A stretch of 55,792 bases of DNA, counting the filler, from Sphacelaria rigidula (Eukaryota), in NCBI GenBank assembly GCA_964200075.2. It is 4 parts of 4 records of this genome, joined end to end, with 100 filler letters (N's around TTAATTAATTAA, not from the genome) between each part and the next. Parts side by side here need not be neighbours in the genome. Positions count along the whole stretch, not along the records: positions 41,921 to 55,792 come from CAXNAA020002619.1; 3 more parts are not named here. One strand, written 5' to 3'. A program made the translations under genes and the position numbers. Positions within the stretch are counted from its first letter, which is position 1. Every line of letters begins with the position of its first letter. Below the pieces are notes generated by a model that saw only the letters and a program-made list of their open reading frames with translations, ran no database searches and was not told the origin of the DNA. This document shows positions 8,213 to 52,887 of this stretch, piece after piece.

Positions 8213-9514
8213 AGGGGCGGCGCCCCCCCCCCCCCCCCCCCACCCCCNNNNNNNNNNTTGTTTGTTTCTTTGTGTTGTTTTTTTGTTTGTGTTGTGGGGG
8301 GAGGGGGGGGGGGGGGGGGGGGGGGGGGGTGGTAGACAGCACATCGTGCCACCCCCCATCACCCCAATGCCCCTCACCCCGCCACACACCACAAACCACA
8401 CACCACACCGCAACTTGCTGCGAACCACACCGGTCTGCAACATGAGCCGCCTTCAGACTTTCGGCTTTGTGAAGGGCGGTAGCGCAGAGTCTGCGGTCGA
8501 CGTTTCTGCCGAACCGTCTGTATCTGTGTCTGCTATGGCGGCTGCTGCTGCACCAGTGGCCGCCCCAGTGCCCTCAACCAAGAGTGGAGAGAGCGGGCAA
8601 GCACAGTTTCCCGCGAACCCCGGCGTTTCTACAGTGTTCGCACGTTGCAGATGCGGTAGTTTAGCGGTATCTAGTGTGCAGACATCAGAAAGGGGGCGAA
8701 AGAGTACCGCGGATGCCTTGTGAATGTTTCAAGTAGGCGGGAGTGTTTCGCGTGTGAGGGTGGACAGTCATTTCTTCTCAGCATATCCAGTTTTTTCTAC
8801 AAGCTTTGAAATGCTATTGCTTCGGCGTTTAGGTATCTGGAGAGTATACTTCGTTGTGTAGCCGACAACGAACTAATTGGACCTATGCTGCCGACTTATC
8901 CCTTGTTTGGTATGGAGAACAGGAAGAGCGAGCGCGCATTTTCATTATCATTTTTCGCCCAGTTTCGACGTTTGGCGCGTTTGTTATTGAATAATGAGTG
9001 CGTTCGCAGTGCGCAGTGCGCATGGCCGAGGTATATGCTCAAATTCGATAGAAACATGACGGAATAGTGGCGACGGAATATCCTTTGGTGTATCACCGGC
9101 TTGAATAACACGCCATCATGCATCACACCTCGAGTTGTGATCAACGACCTCTTTTGCGACTTGCCCCTTGCACGATAAACCATTTTTGTCAAACCGGAAC
9201 GTCACGCCGCGTGGTGTGCCACCACTTCTATGATGTCAGATAACAAATCACAAATCTTACACCGGTGCTGCTGTACCTTCATACAATCAGGCGTCCACCC
9301 ACTTCGGGTTAGGTTGCTAGTGTCAGTGCAGTACCGGGAGGTCTTGCAAGCTGTGTCCCAACTAAAACAACCGTATCGTATCGTATCGTATCGAGTATCG
9401 ATACGTATCGGGTCATTTTCTGCGTATCGAAAAAAATATCGGTATCGACGTCTTGAGGTCGATACGTTGAAAATATCCTATCGAACTTTTTTTTCCGTTC
9501 GATATTCAACACTG
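8016..9514. mobile_element. Non-autonomous hAT-type DNA transposon in TFIIE-alpha intron 1
   Basis: 8-bp TSD CCAGATGC at 8008-8015 and 9515-9522; imperfect TIRs GAGCGTTGAAAATCG / CGATATTCAACACTG; dense subterminal TATCG/CGATA repeats at both ends. Confidence 0.8.
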
Positions 9515-11470: not shown

Positions 11471-12971
11471 TACATAACACATGTCCAAAGTTTGGTCGAG
11501 AAACTCGAAAATCTCGTACAGTTTTCCTTGCCTTGACGTAAAATTCGCCCAAAAAATACGTTTGAAAACTAGAACCAGGTAGTCAGGAGTTTGCACGTTT
11601 CACGCTCACGTCCTCGCACAAACGCGCAAACCTTCACGCAATTATTAGGAGTTAGACCGTCAAACTTTGAGTAATATGGGTCACTACGCAAGTTTCGATC
11701 AACAAGGTTCTTCTATTTCTTGACTTTTTCATCGTTTTTCGGGGGTCCGACGGGATCCAAGTCTTTTCTTCGAAGTCGTGGGTTGAAGTACAAAAAGCGC
11801 TGAAACAATGGATTAAAAAAAAGACGAAACTACTCGAACACAGTTGAGGGCCTGTACATACTGTAGTTCACCTTACTCATGGGACAGACAAAGTCGTATG
11901 TAGATATCGCGGGGAAGGAAGCAAACGCCCGGCTGATTTTGTGTGCAGATAGATATATTATTTATTGGCTTGCAAGCGCCAAGTTGAAGGGTACCCGGAA
12001 AGCACCTGCTACCGAAGGAAAACTCTTCATGAAGGAACTATGAGAAGAGGAGAGACGGCAGGAATTTTGAACGGCTCCCATTAGAGTTGGCCTTATATGG
12101 CCATTTTTCATGAAGAACGTCTCTGGAAACTGCTAGCCTTCTCCAGACAACGAGATTGGGAAAACTCTCCTCGCACACCGCACCCGCAATGGTACAGTCA
12201 GTGCTCCATCATACACTCCGCGCATACCAGTGTAGTACAGGACCGTGGCAACAGCATAGCTGCTGCAGCACTCCGTGCATCTTCATGACCTTAGGGCCAG
12301 GGACAGGCAGTACAAAGAGTAAAGTGCTTTTTCGACGGCAGTGTTACTACTATAAAATAGCACGATGTCGCCCCTGCTGGCTGTGTTGACTGGGCGTACC
12401 GTTTCATACTCGTCGTGTCCGCCACCGATTGTGAACTCTGAAGTATTCTGTGTACTGAGACGGTTGCTACCGCACTACTGACTGTCACGTGAGTTTGTTT
12501 TGTGCGGTATGGCACAAGCTGTACTGCTGCACACTGCACCGCTGGCGACACTGCTACTGTATCAAGCGGCGGTCGGCTGAAGGAAGGGTTGATACGCCTG
12601 CCATTTAGAACCCTATTCCACCAGTAGACACTCTGTGTGTGTATTGCCATCCCATCTATCCTGTACTTCGACGGGGGCACGCGCAAGTTTACCGCAGGTG
12701 ATACAAGGACAAAATGCAGATGATGACCACTACCACCGTCCGTACGCAGGTTAGATGATGACCTCGGGTGTACGGATCCCCAGGATTTTTTCATAAGACC
12801 ATGAAATCATAAGATGGGGTTTTTAAAACTGACTTTTTCTGAGAAAAGCCACTTAGGAAAGTCGTCCGCCCGAACTTTTTTCAGTCTATGAGAAGCGGCC
12901 CAAAGACGCGAATATTTTCATGTGTATTCGTTTTTTATATGTCAACGCTACATGTTTATGTATGTTTACAG

Positions 12972-13224
12972 GTATATAAAGGATAAGGATGAAGACCTGG
13001 GGAGTCGGCTCAACCTGAAGCCCACACAGACGCGGGCGGCGCTCCAGGACTTGGAGAACGAGGGGCTGGTGGCGAGGGAGGAGATGACGGACGAGATTTA
13101 TTTTGGGCGAAAGAGCTCGTACTGGTACATCGACCTTCGCCAAGCGGTGGCTGTCATTCGTCTTCGATTGCACGAGATGCAGACCATCTTGCAAAAGCAG
13201 GAGCAGGCCAAAAACGCGCAGCAG
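12972..13224 (+). CDS. GTF2E1: General transcription factor IIE subunit alpha, exon 2 (gene truncated by contig end)
   Basis: CAG|G acceptor completes the phase-2 codon AAG; YIKDKDEDLGSRLNLKPTQTRAALQDLENEGLV...SYWYIDLRQAVAVIRLRLHEM (winged-helix region, YWYID motif); donor CAG|GTATGT; zinc-ribbon exon not found in the contig. Confidence 0.85.
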
Positions 13225-13474
13225 GTATGTTGTATGTACTGTGTATTAACACTGTACGTGATAACGACATTTCTCGTTTTTCGTCGATTTTTTTTTTTCC
13301 GTTTTCTTGTTTTTTTGTCATCATCATCAAGTAGATATATAACGAATAATGGCTGAATGAATAAGTAATAGGGTTGATTTGCAGACAAGTATTCGCTCAT
13401 GTAACAAGTAGTAGTCTGTCCAGTATTTCGTCACACTTCAAGCTCCCCCCCTCCATATACACACATGTATATAT

Positions 13475-13874: not shown

Positions 13875-13974
13875 NNNNNNNNNNNNNNNNNNNNNNNNNN
13901 NNNNNNNNNNNNNNNNNNTTAATTAATTAANNNNNNNNNNNNNNNNNNNNNNNNNNNNNNNNNNNNNNNNNNNN
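13875..13974. other. Artificial contig linker
   Basis: 44 N + TTAATTAATTAA (stops in six frames) + 44 N. Confidence 0.97.
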
Positions 13975-27847: not shown

Positions 27848-27947
27848 NNNNNNNNNNNNNNNNNNNNNNNNNNNNNNNNNNNNNNNNNNNNTTAATTAAT
27901 TAANNNNNNNNNNNNNNNNNNNNNNNNNNNNNNNNNNNNNNNNNNNN
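27848..27947. other. Artificial contig linker
   Basis: Same 100-nt N/TTAATTAATTAA/N spacer. Confidence 0.97.
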
Positions 27948-28282: not shown

Positions 28283-29190
28283 ACAACTCGACTGCGACCC
28301 TCCACCGCCGGAGGGTCGGCCGCCGCCACTACCCCGATCATCTCGTCCTTTGCCCTTGTGCTGACGACGCTGACGGCGCGCGGCACGAGACTGCCCAGAC
28401 TCCCCAGCGGAAGACGTTGGTCAATCGCGCGCGTAATGGCCGACCTGGCCACAGCGGTGGCAAGTGATGGTCGCGGCCCGGCCGGCTGATGTCGAGCCGT
28501 GGTGGCGCAAGACTTCGGCGAGGAGGTAGACGACTAGCTGAACACCACTGTCTTCCGCCACTGCTTGGCCCCGACCACGACGGTATCTATTCCAAGGTAG
28601 GGGTTAGCCTTTCAGTCGGTCTCGTGCTGCAACTTGACGAGCACGGCTTGCTTACATATTCCCGGCCCTGCAAGCCTTGATGATTACTGCAGCAGGACCG
28701 GGAATAAAGTCACCATCGGGGGAACGATGTACCAGTTCAACGTTTCGATTTCCCTGGAAGTATTTCTCCAGATTTAACAATATTGGCTCCACCCGCTCTA
28801 GCACCATATTTCCCCGAGAGTCCATGGCGACAGCTTTCGCCACGACCGCGGACGCTTGGGTCAGCTCCACCTCGGCGCCCGCCGCATGCCCAGAATGCGT
28901 TTTGATCGCCGCAACCAATTGCGGCGGGGTGATTGTATTCTCATCATGTTTCACACGAGCATAAACTCTGTGCACATGCGTTGGCACTTGTTGAGCCATC
29001 GACACCACCTGATGTCGCACAGCATCCCCTGCTTTAGCGTGCTCCACATGCTTCTGGTACTCCAAGTACTTGGTGTAGAAAGTGCGAGATTCACTGTCAT
29101 GGAGGACCTATCCCCGTATTGAGGAGGTCGCAACTCTTCCCGCATTAACACGGGCGTCACGCTGGACGCAACACGCGAGCCGGTCGCCAT
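28045..29190 (-). mobile_element. Decayed retrotransposon gag with CCHC zinc knuckle
   Basis: CHRCGQVGHYARD* at 28462-28421 (C-X2-C-X4-H-X4 with TGA at the last Cys position); upstream ORF 28652-29065; frameshifts and stops; poly-Q (CTG tract near 28253-28282). Confidence 0.7.
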
Positions 29191-33905: not shown

Positions 33906-34339
33906 TATTACTGTATACTCCGATGAAAGCGCGACTGCTAATGGCTAATTTTCGCTATCCCCCACATGTACTTGCTCGAAAAAAGTGGCTGCATGGGCGG
34001 TTCCTGTCTCCCCCATCTACAGCAATCAATATAAATATTTCTCATGTCCATCATCACAACTTCCTCCGCTGCGACTCGGTCGTCTCACTGACATGCGACC
34101 GAATCCAGTAACTTCCGAGGGAATGCCGGCCCAAATCTCGCCGGGCGCATCTGACGTTTTCTCGTGTGAGTCGTCTAATTTCAAAAGTGTTGAACGTGAG
34201 GTGGACATGAGGATGACAACGAGTTTTTGGCCCGAGCTAGGGTCTTCACGTCGCGGTCGTGCTGATTTCGCGTTGGTTTCGCCTAACATATGTTGTGCTC
34301 ACACTCTGAAACGTTGGACAGTACAACAACCCATCATAC

Positions 34340-34435
34340 CTTGGAATCGGGGATGGTAGCGGAGTGGTGGCGGTACTGCTGCAGCTGTAGATCGCTCATC
34401 AAAATAGGATCGGTCATGACTATCCACTTCACGCC
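34340..34435 (-). CDS. Alpha-carbonic anhydrase exon
   Basis: GVKWIVMTDPILMSDLQLQQYRHHSATIPDSK; 96 nt, AG/GT, phase 0. Confidence 0.9.
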
Positions 34436-34663
34436 CTGGAAGAGAAAGTCGCACACACACGTGAGCGTCCATGGGTGGGTGGAACAGGTGAGCATATCGC
34501 AGCGCAAAGCATATGCGTCAAAAACTTCCAGTTCAGTCACGAAGTCGTGTGTCTTTGCCAGTAGATACAGTACATGTCCGCCTAAATCTTCCCGTGGTAA
34601 CGTCCAAGTACTTTGTAACGTCCGAGTAACGTCCAAGTAGCGTCTAACTAACGTCTGACTAAC

Positions 34664-34807
34664 CTCTGTGCACGGCGGGGTGGTAAGGGAGCCCATGTAG
34701 TGCACGTAGGACGGGGTAGCCGGTAGCATTGCGTACACATCAGACGGGAACTCCTTCTCCGTAGTATCACGCTCATTGACGTTCAGGACAGACCACAGCT
34801 TATCGAT
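34664..34807 (-). CDS. Alpha-carbonic anhydrase exon (GSLTTPPC)
   Basis: IDKLWSVL...LPATPSYVHYMGSLTTPPCTE; 144 nt, AG/GT, phase 0. Confidence 0.95.
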
Positions 34808-35877
34808 CTGCGCCAAGCGGGTAGTTTGAAGTTTCGTGTGCGCAGTGGACGGGGGACGGAGGGGGGGGGAGATGGTGAATAAACACACATTTTTTACCTA
34901 GGTACGTTTGATGGAAGTTCTCGTGTCCATTTATCGCACGGGGGCTGATAGCTGACCGTTTGACAGATTCAGGAACGGCCGGTCTCGCGGAATAGAACAC
35001 AATGTTCATGGTTTCTGTTACCTTCGTGTGGCGGAATCTCCTGGTGAATTGGTTCAAGTCGACTCCAGAGGTTTTGTCAGACGGGATGACTACTTCACGT
35101 GAAATCATCTCAAGCAACCTCTGCCGCGAGCGTTACGGGACTCTTCATGTCGACTAATGCGCGTGTTGTCATCCCATCTTCTTGAACGCCACTCAACACT
35201 CATTGTCACGACTGGGCCATCGGAGCGACCAGGCTCGAATGCATTGAATTTGAAAGTCATGTAGTTATCTTGCCAATCAAATTACACCCCATCAAACGGG
35301 TCCGTCACAGGAGGTTGTTTTGCTAAATTCCAGCTGCAGAACTGCGTGGAACACCCCAGGTAATGGTCCATGGTAATCAACACTTCGCGGCGAATCTCCA
35401 TCCTACCGTGTTCCTAACAGCCGGCAGCGAAATACGATTCCATTTTTCCGTACATCCGAGGCGCTGAGAATCTTGGTTGATCTACACTTAGATATGGTTT
35501 GGGGAATCATCAGCTGGCGAAAAACCGAAAGTAATGTGACATACTCACCTGCACCCCCCGCGATTGAAAATTTACCTTTCTTCGGCACAGATTCGGAACT
35601 TCGCATTCAGGTGTTGGGCTGTGATAGTCTCAAGTTTTCGGCGGCGTGCACGTCATCATTGCAAGGGCGTCAATTTGACCTCTGTCGATGCAAAGCGAGG
35701 ATGAGTTTTCCCTCCCGCCTTAGACTCTCCAGTTCGCTTTGCTTGGTTCCATGACGAGGGCTGTGCTAGCTTGGGGATGTGACAAAAACAAGTCAGTGTT
35801 GACCACGGAATTGACACATGTTGCATGGAAAGTTGCGGCAATGTCACCGATCTGATACCGCACGCTTTTCATCTCAC

Positions 35878-35997
35878 CTCCTCGTTGTCTCCATACATGG
35901 ACGAGTCGATGAGGATGCCTACCACCAACAGCGAGCTGTCTGTTCCATCTCTCACGTGCACAAGGTGGACTTCCGCATCGTGGTGGGTGGAACCGAT
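35878..35997 (-). CDS. Alpha-carbonic anhydrase exon (third Zn-ligand His)
   Basis: IGSTHHDAEVHLVHVRDGTDSSLLVVGILIDSSMYGDNEE (ExHLVH motif); 120 nt, phase 0. Confidence 0.93.
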
Positions 35998-36743
35998 CTG
36001 TTTCATTTTATTTTTCCCAATGGGAGAAAATTGAGCACTAAGAAACACTCCCGACACATCCTCACTGTTTCTTGCCGTGGCCCTCATTCGTGTTTTCTCT
36101 TGAACGAGACCGCGTTTGGGGTTATTACTTCGCAAAAAAATGTCCTTGCTTTTTTCATCTGGCGGGAAGCGAGTCAGGAGGGTAAATAAACGTGAGAGAG
36201 CTTGAATGATGGGCCATGTTGGATTGACTCCTTTTGCGACGCATATTTTGGCAGCATTGTTCGGTGACACCCGGCTTCTCATCTACTTGGATACGCGAGG
36301 TGCCATGGGTAGACAAATGGAATATGGCGATATCCAACTCAGGGGGCCAGGCTCACTTCCGTGGCCTCGAGGCGCTGGATGACGGCAGTGCCAATATGAG
36401 CGCACCACTATCTCACGCGCACAGGACAGGAGCCACTGAAACACAACAACAAACACGCGCTCCCTTTACATTTTCGAGTCGACTCAAACTGTGACGATAT
36501 AGGTATGCAACTTGTCTACGACGAGCTCTCTTCAACACCCGCAGTCATGTATACCGAACACAAAGCGCTCCAATTTACTTGACAGGGCTACCCTTTTTGA
36601 CAGACAGGACCGAGTGTCAATCGGAGAAATGAAAACAATTACAGTACGCTCCAGTCCCGTGAGACGACAGGCATCGGTGCACCTAGGAGAACGACATTAA
36701 TACATGATTAATACAGGTGCGTTATACAGGTGTGATGGCTCAC

Positions 36744-41820: not shown

Positions 41821-41920
41821 NNNNNNNNNNNNNNNNNNNNNNNNNNNNNNNNNNNNNNNNNNNNTTAATTAATTAANNNNNNNNNNNNNNNNNNNNNNNN
41901 NNNNNNNNNNNNNNNNNNNN
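41821..41920. other. Artificial contig linker
   Basis: Same 100-nt N/TTAATTAATTAA/N spacer. Confidence 0.97.
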
Positions 41921-43323
41921 TGGCCTCACCATCGACCGTTGCTTCCCACGTGAGGTAGAAAAATGGGCATGTCTCCGCCGCTTCTAGGTATAACGCCGCC
42001 TTTGCTTTACACGTCTCCTTGCCAGGCTCAAACATTTTCCTCAGTTGTTGGTTGGTAGCTACCAAAATAAGGTGGATAAACTGCTCCTCTACAACATGGT
42101 CGATATTATGAAGGGCGTCCTCCGGAGTGTCGTTCATTTTTTACTTCCCCCAGACGGGAATATCCAGATAGGCGACGTCTTGGCCTTGTTTCGCGATCAC
42201 GTGCAGCCTGTTGACCTGATCTGGACTCGAAACTTGTGACCAAATTGGATTGCACGTGCGGCGGAGGTAAATGCGCGAGACGCGGTTCCTAGTCTCGTCG
42301 CGAAGAGAGGAAGCAATAATGTGTAATACACTTCAGGCATTCACTGTAGACGTGTGAAAACAGTACCGAGATCCTGCGACAATCCCCACCCCTCAGATTC
42401 TCAGCGATACACACTCTGCATGATCCCAAACGAAGGATTCGAAGCGCGATACGCATTCTGTCTGGTATGCCGTGCTCGTTTCCTTCGAAATCTCCGCGTC
42501 GCGACTAGAAGGGTGGGAGGTGACAAGACGACCCCCGAGTGATGGCCTTCTCACACGCCCGTCCCATAATTTAAGGCACTGAAGGGCAATAATACGTTGT
42601 CTGGGTATAATGGTCGTTGTGACGGCTTTACAGATGGGTTCGTTACGAAGTTAGAGGGCAGACTCAGCCGACGTGAAGATAGAATAACAAGTTCTTTACT
42701 TGAGATGGGCCGAAATATACCCAGGCATCGCACTTATTCTACTATTTCGAAGCACTCGTAAAAGGTTTTGGCCGTTGTCGAGCCGAACAGTGCTGGTTTT
42801 ACCAGCAAGGTTTGTCAGTGAAGAAGGCAGTGGGGTCCAACACACGGTAATACGTAAAACTAGTGATTGATTCGCGATTGTGATTATTGTTCGTTGTTTT
42901 TTTCGAATGTTGATTCTCTCCGGAGTTTAGAAAGGGGGGTGTGCGGCCATTTTCGGGCCTGATTATTTGTTTTCATTCGTACGAACCGAGCACCGAATGA
43001 AGACAAAATATGCTTTCAACCGAAAATTGACCAAAAATATAAGACAAAAATCGGACCAAGTGACCCTAACTCAGAAGTTCCTGCACGGCAACGCAAGCAT
43101 GATGATGAGCAGTCCAACAGAAAAACCGCCATCATTCATTGTCCTGCGTGTTTTAGCAGGACCTGCGTCTAAGCGCTACGAAACACGTAACAAAGCATAC
43201 TGAACACATACTTCTTTGGACTACAGTTGCGGCCTGCACTTAAGAACCTCCTATTTTGCGCAACCCTGGGAGTTCTCATTTCCTTTGTGGGTTATCACAG
43301 CTACGATATAGGTTTTAGTCTGG

Positions 43324-43587
43324 GTGGGATTCGAGTTCTTAAATTTCGTGAAAATCGAACCCTCGATTTCTTAACTACCAGGTTCTTAACCCTTAGACGA
43401 CGAGCGTCGCCTCGGAACAGTTGTACAGGCTGACAGTTCCGAGTTCTTAAAGTTCGTGTTAGTGTGCGTGGGATTCGAGTTAATCAATTTCGTGAAAATC
43501 GAACGCTCGATTTCTTAACTACCAGGTTCTTAACCCTTAGACGACGAGCGTCGCCTCGGAACAGTTGTACAGGCTGACAGTTCCGAG
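43324..43587. repeat. Tandem duplication with a period of about 144 bp
   Basis: GTGGGATTCGAGTT...TTTCGTGAAAATCGAA...GGAACAGTTGTACAGGCTGACAGTTCCGAG occurs twice, nearly identical. Confidence 0.85.
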
Positions 43588-46201
43588 ACATCCGGGGGTT
43601 TCCAAGGCTCGGGGGTGGGGGTGGTTTTTGAGAGGGGGGGTGTCTCTCCGCGGAGCATTGGAGAAGCTCATGGAGTCAACCATGTGTGTTTGAAAGTTTC
43701 CCGCGGAAAATTGTGAGCCGTGCACGAGGCCCGAGAGACGCGGGATAACCATTCAAACCAATCACGGTCGTCAAAATGGGCACTTTTGTTACGGTAGAGG
43801 TAAACACCTGGTAGACACATTCGCTGCCTACCCTCATAACTTATTTTGAGCATACCGAATCAACCATAGATTACATAACCAAAAAGTAGGCGTTTGAACA
43901 TCTTCGGTATACTGTGTCTGTCTGTTCAGTACTGCCTGAGCGTCGTACTAGCTCCACACATCCACCCGGTATCAAACGTTATGGCGCAACACGCGAGGGG
44001 CGGCCACGAGTACCCGACGCACGTCTATGTAGACAAGTACTCCGACGGTGAGGCGACCGCCGTCGCCGAGCAATTGCTCTACGGTAGTCTTGGGCGTTCG
44101 CGGCGGTAGTCATGGTGCGATATCCAAACGCATGCTGNNNNNNNTGTAACACTGTCAGATCCGGTACGCTGCAGACCGCACTTGCAGCCGCGGCACGATA
44201 CACTACAGATTGCACAGCAAAAATATGAGGCGTAATAATCAGGTGATCGAGATCCACACCGCCGTCTGTGTTATGACGCAGCTATGTACCTCTTATGCAC
44301 TCCCGGCCCCTTCCGCCGTAGAGTAGGCGTTTTGAGTTGTGATAAAGGAATAATTCTGAGCCCAAAAAGTGTAGTGTCTACCTCAGCCTACCAGCGGGGG
44401 GGTCGCTGTCTAAGGGTTAAGTGCGGGTCGCAACTATAGTCATCGAGTTTTTGAGCGCCTTTTGTTGAGTATCTGAGAGAGACTTCATACTGTTGCGCCG
44501 GCGACGGCCGCCGTCAGCGAAACGATCCAGTGTGGGGACAGACGCCAGCAATCTTTGAAACGTAGCACCATTCAGCAGTCTGCTGAGATATACCATCACC
44601 AGAGTACAGCATCACTACAGTACAGCCCATAAAATGGATACCCCACAATAAAGCTGCAGACACACACAACGGGGGTAAGGGTTAGTCCCACGCTTGGGGT
44701 TGTTTCGCCAGTAGTGCCCATGCGAGGCGTTTCACCCGGTCTGAACCAGCTATCACGCCTTGTATGGCCACCTCCGCCGTGGCTGTGTTGAGAACCGGTT
44801 TCGCGGTGAGGCTGTCGAACAATACTACTGTAGTGCAACGCGGTTGCGAAATCCGAGCCGTTTCTTTTTAACTTAGAGCCCGCATCAGCTGTAGTTTAAA
44901 TATCCCTCCTGACGGTCCCAACCGGGGTCTGACCCAGGGGCGGAAAGCGCTGGCACCCTCCCCCTCAGATAGGATTTGGGACAACTGTGGGGGTATTTGG
45001 GGAAGATCACTCGGAATGAAACATGTAGAGTAGTATTCAGGGGTATCGTAGTACATCTTTCCCTGTTCAAGCAGTCGAAATTTCCTTGCTTGAACGCTTT
45101 ATACCCGTTACAATGAACGACTGCTTTCCAAGAAAACCATCCGTAATTTCAGGACTTCCCCTGGGGTCTAATCCTAACGCTGAGGTTGTCACAAATCCTT
45201 GTGCTTTGTTTTCAGCGTTGCAATCTAGGTACGCGAAGCCCAGGCACGTGGAATGGCGCAAACGTTGCGTGTAGACCTGTTTGACCAGCGCAGCGGTTGA
45301 CCTCTTTCTTTCGATCAATCAGGCCTAAGAAATCATGGATTTAGTGATTGGAATCGGCGATGATTTGTCTGAACCGTGAAAATGTCTATAGGGTTGCACA
45401 CTAAGGCCCAGATATTTGTCATCGAGTGGCTCCTGCGACACAACCAAGCCTCAGGAAAAAAAGTGCATCCCTACCGTGGCACTGCTCTGTAAAAGAACAA
45501 CTACTGATGCCCCCACATATGCCGGAAGGCGTAGCCTGGCGTCCAGAATAGATGGGATGATAGCACACACACAACAGGGATACTTGTACACTCCACCAAT
45601 CAATCCAAACGCTTTCTGAGGTTGGAAACCAAGACCCAAATGGTTGTCATCGACAGGCTCCCACAGTGCAGAGCCCCAGAAAAAAAATCCACCCCTACCG
45701 TAGAACCACTCGTAAAACATACACGTACTCCGCGTGCCCGCGCTGCTATAGTCAACCTTTAGACTTGTGAACATGCGCAATGAACCCGGGCTATACAGGT
45801 TGGCAGGTGAGGAATACTGAATACTGTTTTCTTCTTCTAACTTTTCTTGTATACTAGATTCGGATTCCACGGGTAAGGGGTAGCTTTTGGTATACGTGGA
45901 ATTCAAATCGCGCGTGTCGACGAGAAGCTTCTGCGTGTGCTTGAGACGAAGTATATGGATGACGACTATTTGATGTTGTACAGATGGCAGAGTCTTGCAG
46001 ATCAGTTGTACTGAAATTGTGTGTGAAGCGGGTCGTACAGCTCGTCGCTTGCCAAATATATATGGATCAGGCGGTTTCTACAGGTGACAGAAAATTCCAT
46101 AAAATGAGGTTGTACGATGAAATGGGGTTCAAGCCCAAAACAGTGCTTTCCCGTCACTTTCAGCGATAGTGTTTAATGTCTTTTTTGTCGGCCTAAGGCC
46201 A

Positions 46202-46383
46202 CTCGATCGCGAAGATACTTGAGCGCATTTTACCGACTCTGTGAGCTTACAGCGCTGACTGAAACCGTGGTTTCCCCTGATCTGATATCACCCCCCCCTG
46301 AAATTAAGGGAAAATGACAATTTCGGTCAGCGCCGTAAGCTCAAAAAATGCGCTGAAAAGGTATCTACTCGTACGCGATCGAG
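46202..46383. mobile_element. Foldback/MITE-like inverted repeat
   Basis: CTCGATCGCG...AGCGCATTT...GAGCTTACAGCGCTGACTGAAA mirrored by TTTCGGTCAGCGCCGTAAGCTC...AAATGCGCT...CGCGATCGAG. Confidence 0.65.
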
Positions 46384-46741
46384 GTGCATCACGCCAACAA
46401 AAACGTCACTGGGCACCATCGCTGTCGAGTGAGGGGAAAGCACTGTTTCGGGCTTGAATATCTTTTCATCATACAACCTGATTTTATAGCATTGTCTGTT
46501 AGGTCACAATCAGACAAACGTGCACGGTTGACAACACACCTCCGACCGATTACGATTTATGCCCCAAATGAGCCGACCCGGATCTGTCACGAGCTGATCT
46601 GTCCGACGTTTGGTTGGTTCTGAGCATACAGCGCTCACCGGCTGCACACCCGGAAGGGGCGGTGGAGCGAGCGGTTTGTCTCAGTCATAGGTGTAGCTGT
46701 GATTGAGACACGACGCCCTCGCGCTGTTTCCTACAATGAAG

Positions 46742-46867
46742 GGTAGGTACGCCGACGCAGAGCTACTGTATGAGCGGTGCCAGGCGGTCCAGGAGAAGGT
46801 GCTCGGCCCTGAGCACCCGGAGCTGGCCACAACGCTTGACAGCCGTGCGCTACTGTATCAAGCTCAG
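46742..46867 (+). CDS. 42-aa TPR exon 1 (kinesin-light-chain/NB-ARC-TPR-type repeat)
   Basis: 126 nt, phase 0-0, GRYADAELLYERCQAVQEKVLGPEHPELATTLDSRALLYQAQ; AAG acceptor. Confidence 0.8.
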
Positions 46868-46990
46868 GTGAGCGGCGATAGAGACGTTTGGTTATGGTGT
46901 GTGGAAGTGTCAAGGGCCCTGTGTAAAGTTTGATGTTAGCTGTAGCTGTGACTGATACGCGACGCCCTCGCGATGTTTCCTACAATACAG

Positions 46991-47116
46991 GGTAGGTACG
47001 CCGACGCAGAGCCACTGTATGAGCGCTGCCAGGCGATCCAGGAGAAGGTGCTAGGCCCTGAGCACCCGGGTTTGGCCACAACGCTCGACAGCCGTGCGAG
47101 ATTGTATGATGCTCAG
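46991..47116 (+). CDS. 42-aa TPR exon 2
   Basis: 126 nt, GRYADAEPLYERCQAIQEKVLGPEHPGLATTLDSRARLYDAQ. Confidence 0.85.
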
Positions 47117-47422
47117 GTGAGAGCCAATGGAGACGTCTGGTTGTGGTTTGTTTGTGGATGTGTCAAGGTCCATGTGTGTGGTGCTTGATGCTGTTCGCTA
47201 ATGATGCTGCGGGCCGACGTCTTGTGAAGCCATAGATGCGGAGGAATCTACTCGTGACACGTCAGGGCCCTAAAGTTCAGGCGTCATGCTGTTGGTTTTG
47301 AGCATACAACGCTTACCGGTTGCACACCTGGGAGAAACAGTGGAGCGAGCGTCTCATCGCAGTGGTGAGTGTAGCTGTGACTGAGACACGACGCCCTCGC
47401 GCTGTTTCCTACAACGATGCAG

Positions 47423-47547
47423 GGTAGGTACGCCGACGCAGAGTCAATGTATGAGCGCTGCCAGGCGATCGAGGAGAAGGTGCTAGGCCCTCAGCACCCA
47501 GGGTGGCCACAACGCTCCATAATCGTGCGCTATCGAATGGTGCTCAG
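47423..47547 (+). pseudogene. TPR exon 3, frameshifted (125 nt)
   Basis: 1-nt deletion (CCCAGGGTGGCC vs CCCAGGGTTGGCC); splice sites intact. Confidence 0.8.
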
Positions 47548-47840
47548 GTGAGAGCTGATAGAGAGGTTCGGTTATGGTGTGTGGACGTGCCAACGGTCGT
47601 GTGTAGTGTTTGATGCTGTTCGCTGATGATGTGGGCTGAAGTTTTGTGAGGCCATGGGTGCGGCGGAAGTAACTCGTGGTACGTGAGGGCTGGAAGACCG
47701 GATGTAGTAATCTTGGTTCTGAGCATGGAGCGCTCACCGATTGCACACCTAGGAAGGGCAGTGCAGCGAGCGTCTCGCCGCAGTCGTGGGTGCAGCTGTG
47801 ACTGAGACACAACGCCCTCGCGCTGTTTCCTACAATGCAG

Positions 47841-47966
47841 GGTAGGTACGCCGACGCAGAGCCACTGTATGAGCGCTGCCAGGCGATCCAGGAGAAGGTG
47901 CTAGGCCTTCAGCACCCGGGTTTGGCCACAACGCTTCACAGCCGTGCAGGATTGTATGATGCTCAG
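47841..47966 (+). CDS. 42-aa TPR exon 4
   Basis: 126 nt, GRYADAEPLYERCQAIQEKVLGLQHPGLATTLHSRAGLYDAQ. Confidence 0.85.
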
Positions 47967-48265
47967 GTGAGAGCCGATGGAGACGTTTGGTTATGGTGTG
48001 TGGACGTGTCAAGGGCCCTCTGGAATGTTTGATGTTGTTCGCTGATGCTATGGGCCAACGTTTTGTGAGGCTATGGGTGCGGCGGAATCAAGTCGTGGTA
48101 GGTCAGGGCCGTGAAGACCGGACGTACGGTAGTACCGTTGGTTCTGCGCATACAGCGCCCACCGGCTGCACACGTGGAATGGACAGTGGAGCGGGCGTCT
48201 CGTCGCAGTCGTAGGTGCAGCTGTGACTGAGTTACGACGCCCTCGCGCTGTTTCCTGCGATGCAG

Positions 48266-48391
48266 GGTAGGTACGCCGACGCAGAGCCACTGTATGAGCG
48301 CTGCCAGGCGATCCAAGAGAGGGTGCTAGGCCCTCAGCACCCAGGGTTGGCCACAACGCTGCACAGCTGCGCGAGATTGTATCATACTCAG
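48266..48391 (+). CDS. 42-aa TPR exon 5
   Basis: 126 nt, GRYADAEPLYERCQAIQERVLGPQHPGLATTLHSCARLYHTQ. Confidence 0.85.
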
Positions 48392-48599
48392 GTGAGAGCC
48401 GATAGAGACGTTTGGTTGTGGTGTGTGGACGTGTCAAGTAGATGAGTGGTGGTCGATGTTGTTCGCTGATGCTACGGGGCAACGTCTTGTGAGGTCATCG
48501 GTGCAGCGGAAGTAACTCGTGATACGTGAAGGCCGTGAAGACCGGGCACACTAAGCGTACAGCGCTCACGACGCCCTCGTGCTGTTTCCTACAATACAG

Positions 48600-48725
48600 G
48601 GTAGGTACGCCGAGGCAGCGCCGCTGTATGAGCGCTGCCAGGCGATCCAGGAGAAGGTGCTAGGCCCCGAGCACCCGGGGTTGGCCACAACGCTCGACAG
48701 CCGTGCGAGATTCTATAAAGCTCAG
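48600..48725 (+). CDS. 42-aa TPR exon 6
   Basis: 126 nt, GRYAEAAPLYERCQAIQEKVLGPEHPGLATTLDSRARFYKAQ; donor GTTAGA. Confidence 0.85.
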
Positions 48726-48879
48726 GTTAGAAACGATAGCGACGTGTGGTTGGGGTTTGTTGACGTGTTAACGGCGCCGTGAGATGTTTGATGTTATTCG
48801 CTGATGCTGTGGGCCAACAGTTTGTGGGGCCATGGATGCCGAGGAATCAACCCGTGGTACGTCATATCGGTGAATGGTG

Positions 48880-49650
48880 CCACTCTGTTCCGAAACATAA
48901 GGCCCGTTTGAAAAAAAAACGAAATATAAGCCCCGTGTACACATTGACATGTATACGACTCCCCAGCTCTTCTAGAGCCATGGAAATACTTGCATACACT
49001 ATCGCGAGGAACGGGGAGGAAAAAAAATGTTCAGGGTGACCAGGGGACACCAGGAATCCATCCCCGGGTTTTCACTGCATCAGGTGATGAAATGATGCTG
49101 GTAAGTCCGGTGTTCCAGGTGATGTAGTATCTCCAATACCTTTACCTGGACGATGAACTGCATGGGAATGCGGTAGGAACAGTTTGGGGATGAAAAAAAG
49201 CATTCCCTGGGGTAACCAGGGGATGCGCGAATATCATCCCCGGGTTTTCAATTCAGAAGATCCGGGGATGATATTACTCTGGAGTAGTCCCCCTTCCGCA
49301 GAATGCCGTTGTTGCTGCCTTTGAGAAGCTCGGCAATCACAGCGATTCGCTCGTCATCGTTGAGGTTCTTTCTCTTGGGTGTCTCGGCAACACTTTCATC
49401 GCTAGACATGTTTCTGTACACTACCGGATGGCCTCTTTTAACCACTTTGGAAGAAGCGAGCTCTGTGCAGTGCTTCTTGAGGGTGGGTGTGTGTGGGCGG
49501 GACTGTCAATTTTTGAAAAAAAAAGCGGTTGGTTCTTTCAGGCGGGAGCGGCGCGAATACGATGCAAAAAAGCGTTAAAACAAAATCGCCTTTCATCCGA
49601 AGTTATGCCGCAAAATCCCCAAACGGGGCTTATGTTTCGGAACAGAGTGG
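48880..49650 (-). mobile_element. Internally deleted Tc1/mariner (plant-mariner/Stowaway-like) element in TPR intron 6
   Basis: TIRs of about 31 bp, CCACTCTGTTCCGAAACATAAG(G/C)CCCGTTTG, with one mismatch; TA at the right end; the minus-strand remnant MSSDESVAETPKRKNLNDDERIAVIAELLKGSNNGILRKG resembles a mariner-like transposase N-terminus. Confidence 0.8.
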
Positions 49651-49812
49651 TACGTCATATCGGTGAAGACCGAGTGTAGTAGCGTTGGTTTCGAGCATTC
49701 AGTGCTCACCGGATGCACACCTGGGAGGGGCAGTGCAGCGAGCGTGTCGTCGCAGTCGTAGGTGCAGCTGTGACGGAGACACGATGCCCTCGCGCTGTTT
49801 CCTACAATGAAG

Positions 49813-49926
49813 GGTAGGTACGCTGCCGCAGAGCCCTGCAAGGCGATCCAGGAGAAGGTGCTAGGCCCTGAGCACCCGGGGTTGGCCACAACGCTCCACA
49901 GCCGTGCGCTATTGTATCATGCTCAG
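49813..49926 (+). CDS. TPR exon 7 with an in-frame 12-nt deletion (38 aa)
   Basis: 114 nt, GRYAAAEP----CKAIQEKVLGPEHPGLATTLHSRALLYHAQ; AAG acceptor. Confidence 0.7.
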
Positions 49927-50220
49927 GTGAGCGGCGATAGAGACGTTTGGTTATGGTGTGTGGACATGTCAAGGGCCCTGTGTGGTGCTTGATGTTGTTC
50001 GCTGATTCCATGGGCCAACGTCGTCTGAGGTCATGGTTATGGTGGGATCTACTCGTGGTACGTCAGGGCCGAGAAGACCGGGCGTAGTACCGTTAATACG
50101 GAGCATACAGCGCTCACCGGCTGCACACCCGGTCGGGGCGGTGAAGCGAGCGTCTCGCCGCAGTCGCAGGTGAAGCTGTGACTGAGACACGACGCCCTCG
50201 TGCTGTTTCCTACAATGCAG

Positions 50221-50346
50221 GGTAGGTACGTCGACTCAGAGCCACTGTATGAGCGCTACCAGACGATCGAGGAGAAGGTGCTAGGCCCTCAGCACTCGAG
50301 GTTGGTCACAATGCTCCACAATCATGCGGTATTGTATGGTGCTCAG
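50221..50346 (+). CDS. 42-aa TPR exon 8 (most diverged)
   Basis: 126 nt, GRYVDSEPLYERYQTIEEKVLGPQHSRLVTMLHNHAVLYGAQ. Confidence 0.75.
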
Positions 50347-52887
50347 GTGAGAGCCGATAGAGATGTTTGATTATGGTGTGTGGGCGTGTAAAGGGCCATG
50401 TGTAGTGTTTGATGCTGTTCGCTGATGCTGCGGGGCCATGGGTGCGGCGGAAGTAACTTGTGGTACGTCACGGTCATGAAGACCAGATGGAGTACCGTTG
50501 ATATTGAGCATGCAGGGCTACCGGCTGCGCACCGGGGAGGAGCGGTCGGGCGAGCGTTCCGCCGCAGATTTGGGTTGAGCTGTGACTTTGTGGCCAACCT
50601 GTCATCACCGTGAGGTTTGGGGATCGGGGGTTTCACGCTCGATTCTAAGGATACAATACCTGCTGGGTGCACAATAGGGCTGGGTTGTGACAACAGCTGG
50701 CTCGCCACAGTGGCTGGTTCGATTTCGTGTGAGTTTCGGTGTCGCGGGTCCGGCCAGCGATACAGTATGTCCTGTGCGCCGGGGCACTCGATGTGGCAAC
50801 GGTGGGTCAGAACTGGGCGTTTTTGCCAGCGGGGAACAGCGATGATGTAGGTGCTTTCAGGAGAGAAATGACTTTGACACTGCCTTCCCCTCAATCGTGC
50901 GATTCTGCTTTCAAGGATCTTTTCGATGCATGTCCCGGTGCTTTCGTGTGGTCCGCGTGTTTTCGTGTTGTACTGTAGGTCTACAACTTGGATTTCGCAC
51001 GATCGGTGATGCTCAAAACCGTCCTAGTGAGCTAAATAGTGTATTGCGTGCCGGCACCACACGCGCAAGAGGTCCACCCATGCTGTCCGCAGGAGCGGCA
51101 GTATCTACTGAATTCCGGCCAAACGTTTTCGACCCAAATGACGCACACTGGTGGGAAAAGGCTTCAATCTCTCTGTTGCGAAGACATTATTCAGTGTGTC
51201 GTCAACTGGCCAGCTCATGGACCTTCTTCGGGAGGGGCACATGTCAATTCGAGAGTTTGTAGCATGTGCATGATGAACATAAATAAGGTCAAACTCTTGT
51301 TGATAGCCAATCGTGATCGGAAACCGAAACAAACGTGCCCCTTGGAATATCGATGCTGATGCGTCTTGTTCGAGCAAGCACGCGGAATGTCTCTCGAGAG
51401 GGAACCATGCTCATGTCCAAAGCTACGTGCAGGTTATTGTGCATGCCTCGATACAACCTGTACCAATCGTATTTGTCATAGGACGCGAACCATGAGTACG
51501 GCCCAATATCGTCGCGCAAGTAAGGCATCCTGAGTCAACCGCATCTGCCGGGTGTCGCTGAACCGAGTCGCGAATTGATTGACGTGCCTCTTTGTGTTGC
51601 AAGACCTGCCCGAGACCAGTTTCACCGGTCCTCCAACATGACATATGCAGCCTCATCACTGCACTAGAAATATCCTCATTCATATCTGTACCCAACAACT
51701 AAAGCAAGTCGAGAGTTGACTGGCGTGGCAGGTTATTTCACATAATCTTGGTACGCTGAATTTCCTCCTTCTCGGGCCGTGATGCTCTTTTTCGTCTTGA
51801 TGAACCACAACATTGAGCTCACAACCGAATGCAACCTCTGGCAATATCGAGCATCCTTCCGCAATGGATGCGTAGAATAGTATACGGCATTAGTCGCAGA
51901 TGCCGTATCACATTAAACCATTTCGCATGTCTGTTGCCGTTAATTGGTCAAGGATCGTTCGTGCTCATCTGCAGCTCGAAGTTATCATCCTGAGTCATTT
52001 TTTCGTGCCACTTTTTTGTTCAATACATTGATACATATATTCGGATTTATAAGTTTTGCTCCACACAAAAATTGATCAACATGGGCTGCGCTTGCTGTCG
52101 CGCCAGCACATGAGCCCACATGAATAGATCCCATCGTGCTGATAGATTCGTTTCATTGCGGTATTCATGCCCTGCTGGAAACGGATCCCCAACCCTGCGC
52201 GCCGTCCATCTTGGTACACTGTATGATCCGGTGGGTTGCCGGGCGTTGTCAATAATGATGACAATATCCATGTCCATCATAACATATGTCCCATGCGAGG
52301 ATGAACGGGACTGTCACTATTCGGATCCTGAGTGTACGTATTTGTGACTACACAAATTGTCGTTGCCATCACTCCTTGAAAGGGTGTACACTCACCGAAT
52401 ACTACTTGTAAATGGTCAATCTCGCTGTGATAACGCCGGTGCTTGGTCCGTGGTGCATAACTCTGACGGCTGTCGCCTCCCTAGAGTCGGCTGCCAATGT
52501 GACGAAACTATTGGCCTACACACCGCTGAACCCGTCTCGTCACACCACTCCCCGCACCGCCAGAGCTCTCATAAAGCTGTCAGACATCGCGGCCAAGACC
52601 GCCGTGCTGGCTCCGCTGTTAGTGTTCGACGCCGGCGCTGCTCCTCTATTGGCGATTGATAGCACGAGCACACGAGCCTGGAGTTTGGGAGAGGTGGATC
52701 GCGACCTCCGCAAGATCAGTTACCGTGACCATCGCTGAGGTTGGCAGTGTCTTTTCCGCGCCCAGCGCTCGCCCCACCCGTTGCCTGCTTCATGATAATC
52801 CTTAGACCGTGGTGGTAGTCCATCTGGATCATGCATACTTTTTTCGAGTGAAATTGATGCCGGTTCGAACAAATGACTTACTCTCGC

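Follow-up and report, generated by a model that had tools for sequence, protein, structure and literature searches.

Brown algae encode NB-ARC-TPR proteins that are candidate immune receptors (PMC3341825). In the genes described there, each repeat is encoded by one 126-nt phase-0 exon, inactivated exons are interspersed, and even functional genes hold inactivated TPR exons. Zambounis et al. (2012) put forward a somatic recombination hypothesis for them (PMC3341825). The repetitive exons were also studied by Teng et al. (2023, Plant J; as cited in PMC11378527 and PMC12879055), and PMC11378527 attributes to that work the alternative splicing of repeat exons in the family. According to PMC11378527, reports of somatic recombinants, a recombinase, or clonal cells are lacking to date. 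There are also repeat-only brown algal loci, which like the locus described here are arrays of one-repeat exons without a signaling domain (PMC3341825; PMC11378527; predicted protein P0001). However, the "reservoir" role suggested in PMC11378527 is a conjecture about LRR exons and LRR-only sequences, with no tested function given there. Arthropod Dscam (PMC11378527) is similar in having tandem duplicated exons that are potentially combined by splicing, but its arrays belong to a complete gene and their splicing is mutually exclusive, whereas the array here consists of detached exons known from DNA. P0001, a TPR-only protein from Ectocarpus sp., starts directly in a repeat, and P0001-type gene models are automatic predictions.

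More distant systems share some of these features. Lamprey VLR cassettes and chicken pseudo-V genes are arrayed repeat cassettes without a promoter or ends; these lie beside an incomplete receptor gene, into which lymphocytes copy them. In contrast, we know of no recipient gene, somatic variant, or enzyme for the Sphacelaria array. Fungal NLRs with TPR, ANK, or WD repeats include the NB-ARC plus TPR architecture, and they gain and lose repeat units. To our knowledge, an exon-per-repeat organization is not a feature of fungal NLRs.

The array described here is in another brown alga, Sphacelaria rigidula. The RPL7 of this host shares 97% identity with that of Sphacelaria and 87-92% with that of Ectocarpus. 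We analyzed a 55.8-kb stretch of its DNA (55,792 nt, referred to as the window), which has eight tandem TPR cassettes on the + strand at 46610-50587 and no such exon on the - strand. The features are as follows (the leading partial intron and introns 1 to 5 and 7 are from the intron alignment).

46000-46609, no strand assigned: high-copy repeat of the left flank; its right end, 46609, adjoins the first base of array homology
46610-46741, + strand: leading partial intron, comprising 132 nt from the 3' end of a cassette intron, with polypyrimidine tract and AG acceptor
46742-46867, + strand: exon 1, 126 nt, intact 42-aa TPR repeat; TPR_12 33.8 bits
46868-46990, + strand: intron 1, 123 nt, with an internal deletion
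46991-47116, + strand: exon 2, 126 nt, intact; TPR_12 40.6 bits
47117-47422, + strand: intron 2, 306 nt
47423-47547, + strand: exon 3, 125 nt, frameshifted by a 1-nt deletion (alignment gap); splice sites retained
47548-47840, + strand: intron 3, 293 nt
47841-47966, + strand: exon 4, 126 nt, intact; TPR_12 35.5 bits
47967-48265, + strand: intron 4, 299 nt
48266-48391, + strand: exon 5, 126 nt, intact; TPR_12 44.7 bits
48392-48599, + strand: intron 5, 208 nt, with an internal deletion
48600-48725, + strand: exon 6, 126 nt, intact; TPR_12 35.1 bits; donor GTTAGA rather than GTGAG
48726-49812, + strand: intron 6, 1087 nt, made up of an ordinary cassette intron of ~294 nt and a 779-bp transposon
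48875-49653, no strand assigned: non-autonomous transposon within intron 6, 779 bp, with terminal inverted repeats of ~30 nt
49813-49926, + strand: exon 7, 114 nt, lacking 4 conserved codons through a 12-nt in-frame deletion; TPR_12 24.7 bits
49927-50220, + strand: intron 7, 294 nt
50221-50346, + strand: exon 8, 126 nt, open frame but degenerate; TPR_12 20.7 bits
50347-50587, + strand: trailing partial intron (intron 8), the first ~241 nt of a cassette intron; homology ends short of the acceptor region

A preliminary description had proposed eight tandem one-repeat TPR exons between 46610 and 50590. The exons and their lengths proved correct to the base, and homology extends from ~46610 to ~50587. 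Its intron lengths were exact, and the introns are indeed homologous (mean pairwise identity of 78%, compared with 87% for exons). The cassette of intron plus exon was also correctly recognized as the unit duplicated: Tandem Repeats Finder reported a period of 425 at 46944-48545 (3.8 copies, 82% matches, score of 2049). Some details need revision. Exons 3 and 7 have the lengths given for two damaged copies, but exon 7 keeps its frame. Exon 8 had been placed among the intact copies, but it is the most degenerate, scoring below the curated TPR_12 cut-off of 30.1 bits and departing from the array majority at 14 non-synonymous and 1 synonymous sites (exon 2 is the nearest to the majority, with 4 departures). 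The 1087-nt intron is homologous to the others in its ~294-nt cassette portion, and the transposon makes up the excess. Copies of a 14-nt target-site duplication flank this element, at 48861-48874 and 49654-49667. Five bins overlap the element (48784-49653), and the contig depth summed in them was 64-273 in X1 and 63-387 in X4, the latter a sample that comes from a second study. Seven X4 contigs continue with unlike sequence past the right end of the element at 49653.

Each exon corresponds to one 42-aa TPR_12/TPR_10 repeat in Pfam. TPR_12 matched all seven in-frame exons (E values of 1.5e-11 to 4.9e-4), five of them above the curated cut-off and exons 7 and 8 below it. AG stands before and GT after every one of the eight exons, and the donor is GTGAG in seven of the eight (GTTAG for exon 6). 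As had been pointed out, 126-nt phase-0 exons remain in frame whatever their subset or order. The deletion in exon 7 is in frame, and therefore only the 125-nt exon 3 disrupts the reading frame. Splicing of all eight exons leads to a stop at codon 146, whereas skipping of exon 3 leaves 290 stop-free codons. An in-frame ATG is 6 nt 5' of exon 1, with stops ahead of it.

Assignment to the Ectocarpus NB-ARC-TPR exon-per-repeat class was supported. The nearest database repeats (at most 78.6% identity) are in P0005, a brown algal NB-ARC-TPR protein that carries PF00931. The array resembles the Ectocarpus genes in its 126-nt/42-aa phase-0 exon for each TPR repeat, its homologous introns, and its frameshifted and shortened exons on the coding strand with none on the opposite strand (PMC3341825). 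The strict motif fragments published in PMC3341825 have a literal match in none of seven array exons, whereas the relaxed motif is found in three of seven for its N-terminal fragment and six of seven for its C-terminal fragment. The cassette class and the exon-shuffling hypotheses were already in the literature, as the preliminary description had acknowledged (PMC3341825; PMC11378527). Unlike the Ectocarpus genes, however, the array lacks an NB-ARC within 46.6 kb on its upstream side, and neither a first nor a last exon can be identified.

The exons have changed less than the introns. Their mean pairwise difference is 0.126, compared with 0.265 for introns (permutation P < 1e-4), and none of the 32 splice-site bases has been lost (P = 0.007 if they changed at the rate of introns). 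There are no in-frame stops, although 2.7-3.0 were expected from 73 substitutions (P = 0.044-0.061). Second codon positions are conserved in the five intact exons (0.047-0.064), where variation is concentrated in codons 27 and 32-41. The variable codons mostly coincide with the "x" positions of the family motif in PMC3341825. Across the exons' first 75 nt and the introns' last ~30 nt, conservation extends even to third codon positions (0.096, versus ~0.25 for introns). The five intact exons have 15 synonymous and 28 non-synonymous substitutions, which does not differ significantly from neutral (P = 0.07-0.17), and pooled dN/dS is 0.69 for the six full-length in-frame exons (exons 1, 2, 4, 5, 6, and 8). 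Neutral decay would have left exons, splice sites, and open frames less well conserved than they are, so the array appears, from its sequence, to have been maintained as spliced coding DNA through much of its past. These signs of constraint (exons, splice sites, stops, and motif-like variation) would fit a still-expressed gene equally well, which counts against the explanation that we favor below.

We searched the window for the remainder of a receptor. A six-frame regex search for a P-loop had no matches in the whole 55.8 kb, and tblastn found no further TPR exon outside the array. With 10 brown algal homologues as tblastn queries (NB-ARC-TPR, TIR-NB-ARC-TPR, and others), 710 of 710 matches were inside the array and none outside. 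Therefore, NB-ARC, TIR, and any other non-TPR part of these homologues are absent throughout the window, including the 46.6 kb upstream, and the array as assembled is not the receptor locus that had been proposed. No cassette remnant was found in the window outside 46550-50650 at an E value below 0.01. None of 10 + strand open reading frames at 36.7-43.2 kb had a Pfam match, and the array has no recognizable first or last exon and no evidence of a promoter or polyadenylation. The nearest recognizable upstream gene is 10 kb from the array, lies on the opposite strand, and encodes an alpha-carbonic anhydrase; there are also runs of N upstream. The left-flank repeat includes a palindromic MITE-like element (~46087-46499) with arms that match in reverse at 70% identity. 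Summed contig depth in bins 46000-46695 was 1.1e4 to 1.7e5, compared with ~21-32 in the array introns, and seven X1 contigs continue with unlike sequence past 46609. The 5' half of the cassette intron was not found beyond this repeat. To the right, unique non-coding DNA begins after ~50587, and X1 record 8 and X4 record 15 span the junction.

Depth of the X1 intron contigs (21-32) equals that of the unique flank (26.7), which indicates that the array is single-copy. Exon-core contigs are several-fold deeper, so the genome holds near-identical cores at other sites. Exon 2 is 86-90% identical to the other intact exons (1, 4, 5, and 6), 79% to exon 7, and 64% to exon 8. The intact exons are closer to one another than to database repeats, which argues for local expansion. 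The closest intron pair is 87% identical, and the cassettes form a star-like tree whose terminal branches measure 0.055-0.27. Judged by divergence (~13% in exons and 24-27% in introns), the cassettes are old, without homogenization. X4 contigs have the same exon 2/intron 2, intron 2/exon 3, intron 7/exon 8, exon 8/intron 8, and right-boundary junctions as the window, and the only odd contig joints have 21- to 23-nt sides and are outside the cassette register. X4 has 17 differences among the 2183 bases listed. Differences between X1 and X4 number at least 6 in 995 nt of exon (3 synonymous and 3 non-synonymous) and, among those listed, at least 10 in introns; exon differences are not rarer than intron ones, and the numbers are tiny. 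Nothing points to current or somatic rearrangement of the array. Earlier suggestions of ongoing unequal exchange, in-array gene conversion, or somatic rearrangement are unsupported, given old unhomogenized cassettes and identical X4 junctions.

We consider it somewhat probable that this is a detached, germline-fixed TPR array of NB-ARC-TPR origin that is now a static remnant, most likely a pseudogene fragment and at best a TPR-only reading frame. Its source would be the TPR sensor domain of the brown algal NB-ARC-TPR (NLR-like) family. Homologous cassettes of ~425 bp would have multiplied to eight on the spot through unequal crossing-over or replication slippage, and the array would have lost its connection to an NB-ARC or any other N-terminal module. 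Later damage includes the transposon, the two intron deletions, and the frameshifted, shortened, and degenerate exons 3, 7, and 8. However, functional published genes have inactivated exons, so three damaged exons of eight are not proof of decay.

The ATG before exon 1 and the TPR-only P0001 protein mean that an expressed TPR-only gene is possible, although we think it unlikely. Its transcripts would begin within the upstream repeat or close to it, with translation from that ATG. Skipping of exon 3, and perhaps optionally of others, would yield proteins of 5-7 repeats and up to ~290 aa, which might be adaptors, decoys, or regulators of NB-ARC-TPR receptors. The 290 stop-free codons, the ATG with stops before it, conservation of exons and splice sites beyond the intron rate, and the alternative splicing of repeat exons in the family (PMC11378527, after Teng 2023) are consistent with this. 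However, the array yielded no sign of a promoter, of a first or terminal exon, or of polyadenylation, exons 7 and 8 are under the Pfam cut-off, and exon 3 has good splice sites, so that its inclusion would end the frame at codon 146. The P0001-type models are also automatic predictions.

Rather more doubtful is that the array is the ordinary 3' TPR part of a complete NB-ARC-TPR receptor gene, its 5' part lost because the assembly was wrongly joined at the high-copy repeat, or lying across an unusually long, transposon-filled intron. The repeats are nearest to those of NB-ARC-TPR proteins, published genes mix intact and inactivated exons likewise (PMC3341825), and the array starts where a high-copy repeat ends, a typical assembly break site, with N runs upstream. 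However, the 46.6 kb upstream has no NB-ARC or other homologous part, the cassette intron's 5' half is absent on the far side of the repeat, and an opposite-strand carbonic anhydrase gene is 10 kb upstream. The array also ends within an intron, without an acceptor or further exon.

It would be surprising if these NB-ARC-less cassettes were templates for gene conversion or copy-choice into distant NB-ARC-TPR receptor genes, in the germ line or somatically. They are open and splice-competent despite having no start or end of their own, near-identical exon cores occur elsewhere according to contig depth, and exchange with paralogues could yield the conserved exon starts and intron ends, third positions included. 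Reservoir and somatic recombination ideas have also been published (PMC3341825; PMC11378527). Against this, there is no recipient gene nearby, junctions are common to two samples with odd joints confined to those short-sided, out-of-register cases, cassettes within the array are not homogenized, and PMC11378527 records no reports of somatic recombinants, recombinase, or clonal cells. Finally, a dead satellite that resembles exons and never coded at this locus would fit the tandem structure, transposon-rich surroundings, and pooled dN/dS, but it is already disfavored and scarcely credible, because TPR_12 matches all seven in-frame exons (five above cut-off), exon divergence is half that of introns, and there are no stops, all splice sites are retained, and second codon positions are conserved.

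The reading that we favor is thus far a detached remnant of the NB-ARC-TPR family. The design of the array is already published, and this copy stands apart without its signaling half and is partly eroded. It is unlikely to be a working receptor and is most likely a pseudogene fragment or a TPR-only reading frame. Any variety from such an array would arise as cassettes are slowly gained and lost in the germline and, if the array is transcribed at all, through exon skipping, rather than by rearranging DNA within an individual.

The array consists of eight cassettes, and a motif scan for the exon start found eight copies on the + strand and zero on the - strand. The exons are as follows.

46742-46867, + strand: exon 1, 126 nt
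46991-47116, + strand: exon 2, 126 nt
47423-47547, + strand: exon 3, 125 nt, frameshifted
47841-47966, + strand: exon 4, 126 nt
48266-48391, + strand: exon 5, 126 nt
48600-48725, + strand: exon 6, 126 nt
49813-49926, + strand: exon 7, 114 nt, in-frame 12-nt deletion
50221-50346, + strand: exon 8, 126 nt, degenerate

AG precedes all eight exons and GT follows all eight (GTGAG seven times, GTTAG once). Introns 1 to 7 are 123, 306, 293, 299, 208, 1087, and 294 nt long, and the motif scan and alignment reproduced the exon and intron lengths of the preliminary description exactly. Homology between cassettes starts at ~46610 and stops at ~50587, and Tandem Repeats Finder reported the array as a tandem repeat with a period of 425, 82% matches, and a score of 2049. 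Six of the eight exons are 126 nt, and the frame is unbroken if exon 3 is skipped. Two exons had been described as damaged, and their lengths (125 and 114 nt) stand. However, the 12-nt deletion in the 114-nt exon is in frame, which leaves the 125-nt exon as the sole cause of a frameshift. Introns 1 and 5 have internal deletions. The length of the 1087-nt intron is also correct, but it is actually a normal intron plus a 779-bp nonautonomous transposon (48875-49653) whose terminal inverted repeats measure ~30 nt and whose target-site duplication, at 14 nt, is unusually long. The summed depth of this transposon is several-fold the single-copy depth, and an ORF within it (49248-49505, - strand) has a weak, subthreshold match to DUF7769 (E=0.0012). 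An in-frame ATG lies 6 nt before the exon in six of the eight cassettes (exons 1, 3, 4, 5, 7, and 8; 46736-46741 for exon 1), and an Ectocarpus TPR-only protein model, P0001, begins with M-K-G, the residues predicted from the ATG before exon 1.

Pfam matches elsewhere in the window identified three neighboring genes or gene pieces.

2394-2861, - strand: ribosomal protein L7 (uL30) exon
12892-13353, + strand: TFIIE-alpha exon
34337-34897, - strand: alpha-carbonic anhydrase

Identity of the L7 piece is 97% with Sphacelaria rigidula, versus 87-92% with Ectocarpus species, Scytosiphon, and Pylaiella, and the sequence therefore comes from a brown alga outside Ectocarpus. An ORF at 35872-36282 (- strand) has no Pfam match but by eye resembles more of the anhydrase, and an open frame of 151 aa at 28655-29107 (- strand) is coding-like, also without a Pfam match. 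A tandem repeat at 43315-43587 (period 144, 1.9 copies, 95% matches) is not related to the TPR array. N runs occupy 13875-13974, 27848-27947, and 41821-41920 (each a pair of 44-N runs with 12 bases between), as well as 8248-8257 and 44138-44144. The repeat flank upstream of the array (46000-46609) contains a MITE-like palindromic element at 46087-46499, with arms 70% identical in reverse over ~413-436 nt. Contigs of this element have a very high summed depth in both DNA samples, up to 1.7e5, and pieces of it were present in the runs guessed to be RNA. Its nesting in another repeat is suggested by contigs that connect 46047 with 46552.

The seven in-frame exons were scored with profile HMMs, leaving out the frameshifted exon 3. 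All seven matched TPR_12 in Pfam and six matched TPR_10, with one 42-aa repeat each. Exons 1, 2, 4, 5, and 6 passed the curated TPR_12 cut-off of 30.1 bits (33.8-44.7 bits), whereas exon 7 (24.7 bits) and exon 8 (20.7 bits) fell below it. Exon 8 had been counted as intact, which we cannot maintain because of this low score and because it departs from the array majority by 14 non-synonymous and 1 synonymous changes. A database search with exon 2 returned brown-algal proteins amid many bacterial TPR/CHAT proteins, and several of the brown-algal matches have an NB-ARC domain (PF00931), one of them also with TIR. Repeat by repeat, the closest database repeat was in P0005, an NB-ARC-containing brown-algal protein, at no more than 78.6% identity. 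Exon 2 is 86-90% identical to exons 1, 4, 5, and 6, 79% to exon 7, and 64% to exon 8. The intact exons are thus more alike than they are to any database repeat, and therefore the array grew locally.

Zambounis et al. (PMC3341825) described 124 such exons in Ectocarpus NB-ARC-TPR genes, with one 126-nt, 42-aa, phase-0 exon per TPR in 13 of 24 genes. Inactivated exons are scattered among them, always on the coding strand. The statement that the general class had been described is therefore borne out by this source. Like the genes in that 2012 study, the array has one TPR per 126-nt, 42-aa exon with phase 0 on both sides, and its damaged exons 3 and 7 and degenerate exon 8 are on the coding strand, with none on the - strand. 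Unlike them, it has no NB-ARC encoded upstream in the 55.8-kb window, where its left junction is in a high-copy repeat. The TPR signature fragments published in the same paper matched none of the seven exons in their strict form. When K/R, N/S, V/I/L, and L/Y were allowed, the N-terminal fragment matched three of the seven and the C-terminal fragment six.

Several independent signs suggest that the array was coding for a good part of its history. Column difference was 0.126 in exons versus 0.265 in introns (permutation p<1e-4). The 73 departures from the majority produced no stops, versus 2.7-3.0 expected (P=0.044-0.061), and none of the 32 splice-site bases had been lost (P=0.007, taking the intron rate of 0.143). 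Among the five intact exons, second codon positions were best preserved, and variation clustered in codons 27 and 32-41, which are largely the free positions of the family motif as it is given in PMC3341825. Three results weigh against putting this strongly. The same five exons had 15 synonymous and 28 non-synonymous differences, not significantly off neutral (p=0.07-0.17), and pairwise dN/dS was 0.28-0.61 among intact exons and 0.93-3.6 against exon 8. Third positions were conserved too in the first 75 nt of the exons (0.096), which could also reflect exchange with paralogues or nucleotide-level constraints.

Our leading interpretation, held with modest confidence, is that the array derives from the TPR sensor domain of the NB-ARC-TPR family, has become detached, is fixed in the germ line, and is eroding slowly. 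It would today be a pseudogene fragment or, at most, a reading frame for TPRs only, and it would have arisen when intron-plus-exon units of ~425 bp were exchanged unequally. An expressed TPR-only gene with exon skipping is a less likely explanation. Splicing all eight exons leads to a stop at codon 146, whereas omitting exon 3 leaves 290 open codons. In X8 and X9, two runs guessed to be RNA, the only exon-derived contigs were pieces of the conserved core, 39-46 nt long. They carried 1-2 mismatches, had high depth, and are probably common to paralogues. In the contigs of both runs, exons 1, 4, 5, and 8 had no cover and there were no exon-exon joints; transposon pieces were also recovered. One guessed-RNA contig lies inside intron 7 (49958-50108, - strand, 151 nt, depth 2, 2 mismatches) and may represent unspliced transcript, carried-over DNA, or a paralogue. 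None of these contigs is locus-specific RNA evidence for or against transcription of the array.

We consider it improbable that the array is the 3' part of a complete receptor, with the 5' part absent because the assembly was mis-joined at the high-copy repeat or because an intron is very long.

The window contains no receptor. On the left, homology begins, to within a few bases, where the repeat has its right end (46609). Contigs of that repeat have a summed depth of 1e4-1e5, other copies continue into unrelated sequence, and the remainder of the leading intron was not found beyond it. At the right edge, homology ends ~50 nt before the expected acceptor position and gives way to unique sequence, and single contigs span this boundary in two samples. 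A six-frame search of the 55,792 bases found no P-loop, and there was no further TPR exon in them. Ten brown-algal homologues gave 710 tblastn matches in the window, every one of them within the array, and no exon or intron fragments occurred elsewhere in the window at E <0.01. None of the ten longest stop-free + strand ORFs at 36.7-43.2 kb matched Pfam; shorter upstream ORFs and the region 43.2-46.6 kb were covered by tblastn rather than Pfam. Rfam gave no matches in 45500-51500 at E up to 0.1. In X1, a DNA contig sample, depth was 21-32 in array introns versus 26.7 in the unique flank, and the array is single-copy. Exon cores were at ~140-160, and therefore the genome has similar cores at other places. 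The sample contigs contained no similar introns at 94% identity or above, and pattern scans of metagenome contigs for related loci gave no matches for the intron/exon junction or the exon core.

The preliminary description had proposed a candidate combinatorial diversification locus. The closest pair of introns is 87% identical (mean 78%), and terminal branches are long in the cassette tree, which has a star-like shape. Its sister pairs 1+7, 3+8, and 2+6 (support 0.62-0.94) are not collinear, and the supported pairs 1+7 and 3+8 are not adjacent either. We rejected a block-duplication model for this reason, as no simple higher-order repeat accounts for cassette order. The array looks like the outcome of an old duplication burst, after which the cassettes decayed independently and were not homogenised recently. 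Exon identity and intron identity were weakly correlated across cassette pairs (Mantel r=0.42, p=0.086), too weakly to speak for or against exon-restricted conversion. Contigs from X4, a DNA sample from a second study, bridge exon 2/intron 2, intron 2/exon 3, intron 7/exon 8, exon 8/intron 8, and the right boundary exactly as in the window, in a comparison of contigs from two samples, where rare somatic variants are invisible. X4 had at least 17 differences among the 2183 bases listed. Among the differences listed between X1 and X4, 6 were exonic (3 synonymous and 3 non-synonymous) and 10 intronic, too few to weigh. Two odd joints, 47068>48032 in X1 and 47981>48797 in X4, were rejected as rearrangements; their sides are 23 and 21 nt and out of cassette register, so we regard them as repeat artefacts. 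Active diversification is therefore not supported, given the divergence of the introns, the shape of the tree, and the identical junctions wherever they were bridged in two samples. These results speak against a locus that is dynamic at present.

Teng et al. 2023 (Plant J), on NB-ARC-TPR exon shuffling, reportedly found brown-algal repetitive NB-ARC-TPR genes transcribed and spliced, with alternative isoforms. Zambounis et al. proposed exon shuffling by targeted somatic recombination (PMC3341825), and a later paper by another group favours alternative splicing, citing Teng et al. 2023 (PMC11378527). According to PMC11378527, reports of somatic recombinants, a recombinase, or clonal cells are lacking. 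According to the Phaeoexplorer preprint (10.1101/2024.02.19.579948), these families expanded across brown algae. Therefore, the class and the hypotheses of the preliminary description are already in print. NB-ARC-less arrays may already be catalogued in the supplementary tables of PMC3341825, which list inactivated exons and other repetitive TPR loci.

It is very unlikely that the locus serves as a donor bank, either for gene conversion or for diversification in somatic cells, in which NB-ARC-less arrays would stay open and splice-competent as conversion donors to NB-ARC-TPR receptor genes elsewhere. The copied unit would be the whole cassette or the conserved block, which takes in the 30 nt ahead of the exon and its first 75 nt, and gene conversion would take place in the germ line, conceivably also in somatic cells. 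No recipient gene for donor cassettes was found in the window. A satellite that was never coding is hardly credible, and we rejected this "dead satellite" because exon conservation, the lack of stops, and the intact splice sites are against it.

The complex multicellularity of brown algae evolved independently of that of animals and plants. Diversification of their candidate immune receptors by recombination is a published speculation. If the donor bank were real, it would mean cassette-based renewal of receptor surfaces in brown algae, by analogy with the pseudo-V genes of chickens or the VLR cassettes of lampreys. The evidence against a dynamic locus tempers the adaptive-immunity reading. 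What the locus adds is a single-copy cassette array that lacks NB-ARC, has clean limits, and comes from a second lineage of brown algae. Its signals of past constraint, datable transposon insertion, and junctions common to both samples make it convenient to test, with silent relics, TPR-only genes, or conversion donors as the options for such orphan arrays. As far as the present evidence goes, the array is an ordinary by-product of the birth-and-death evolution already known for the NB-ARC-TPR family.
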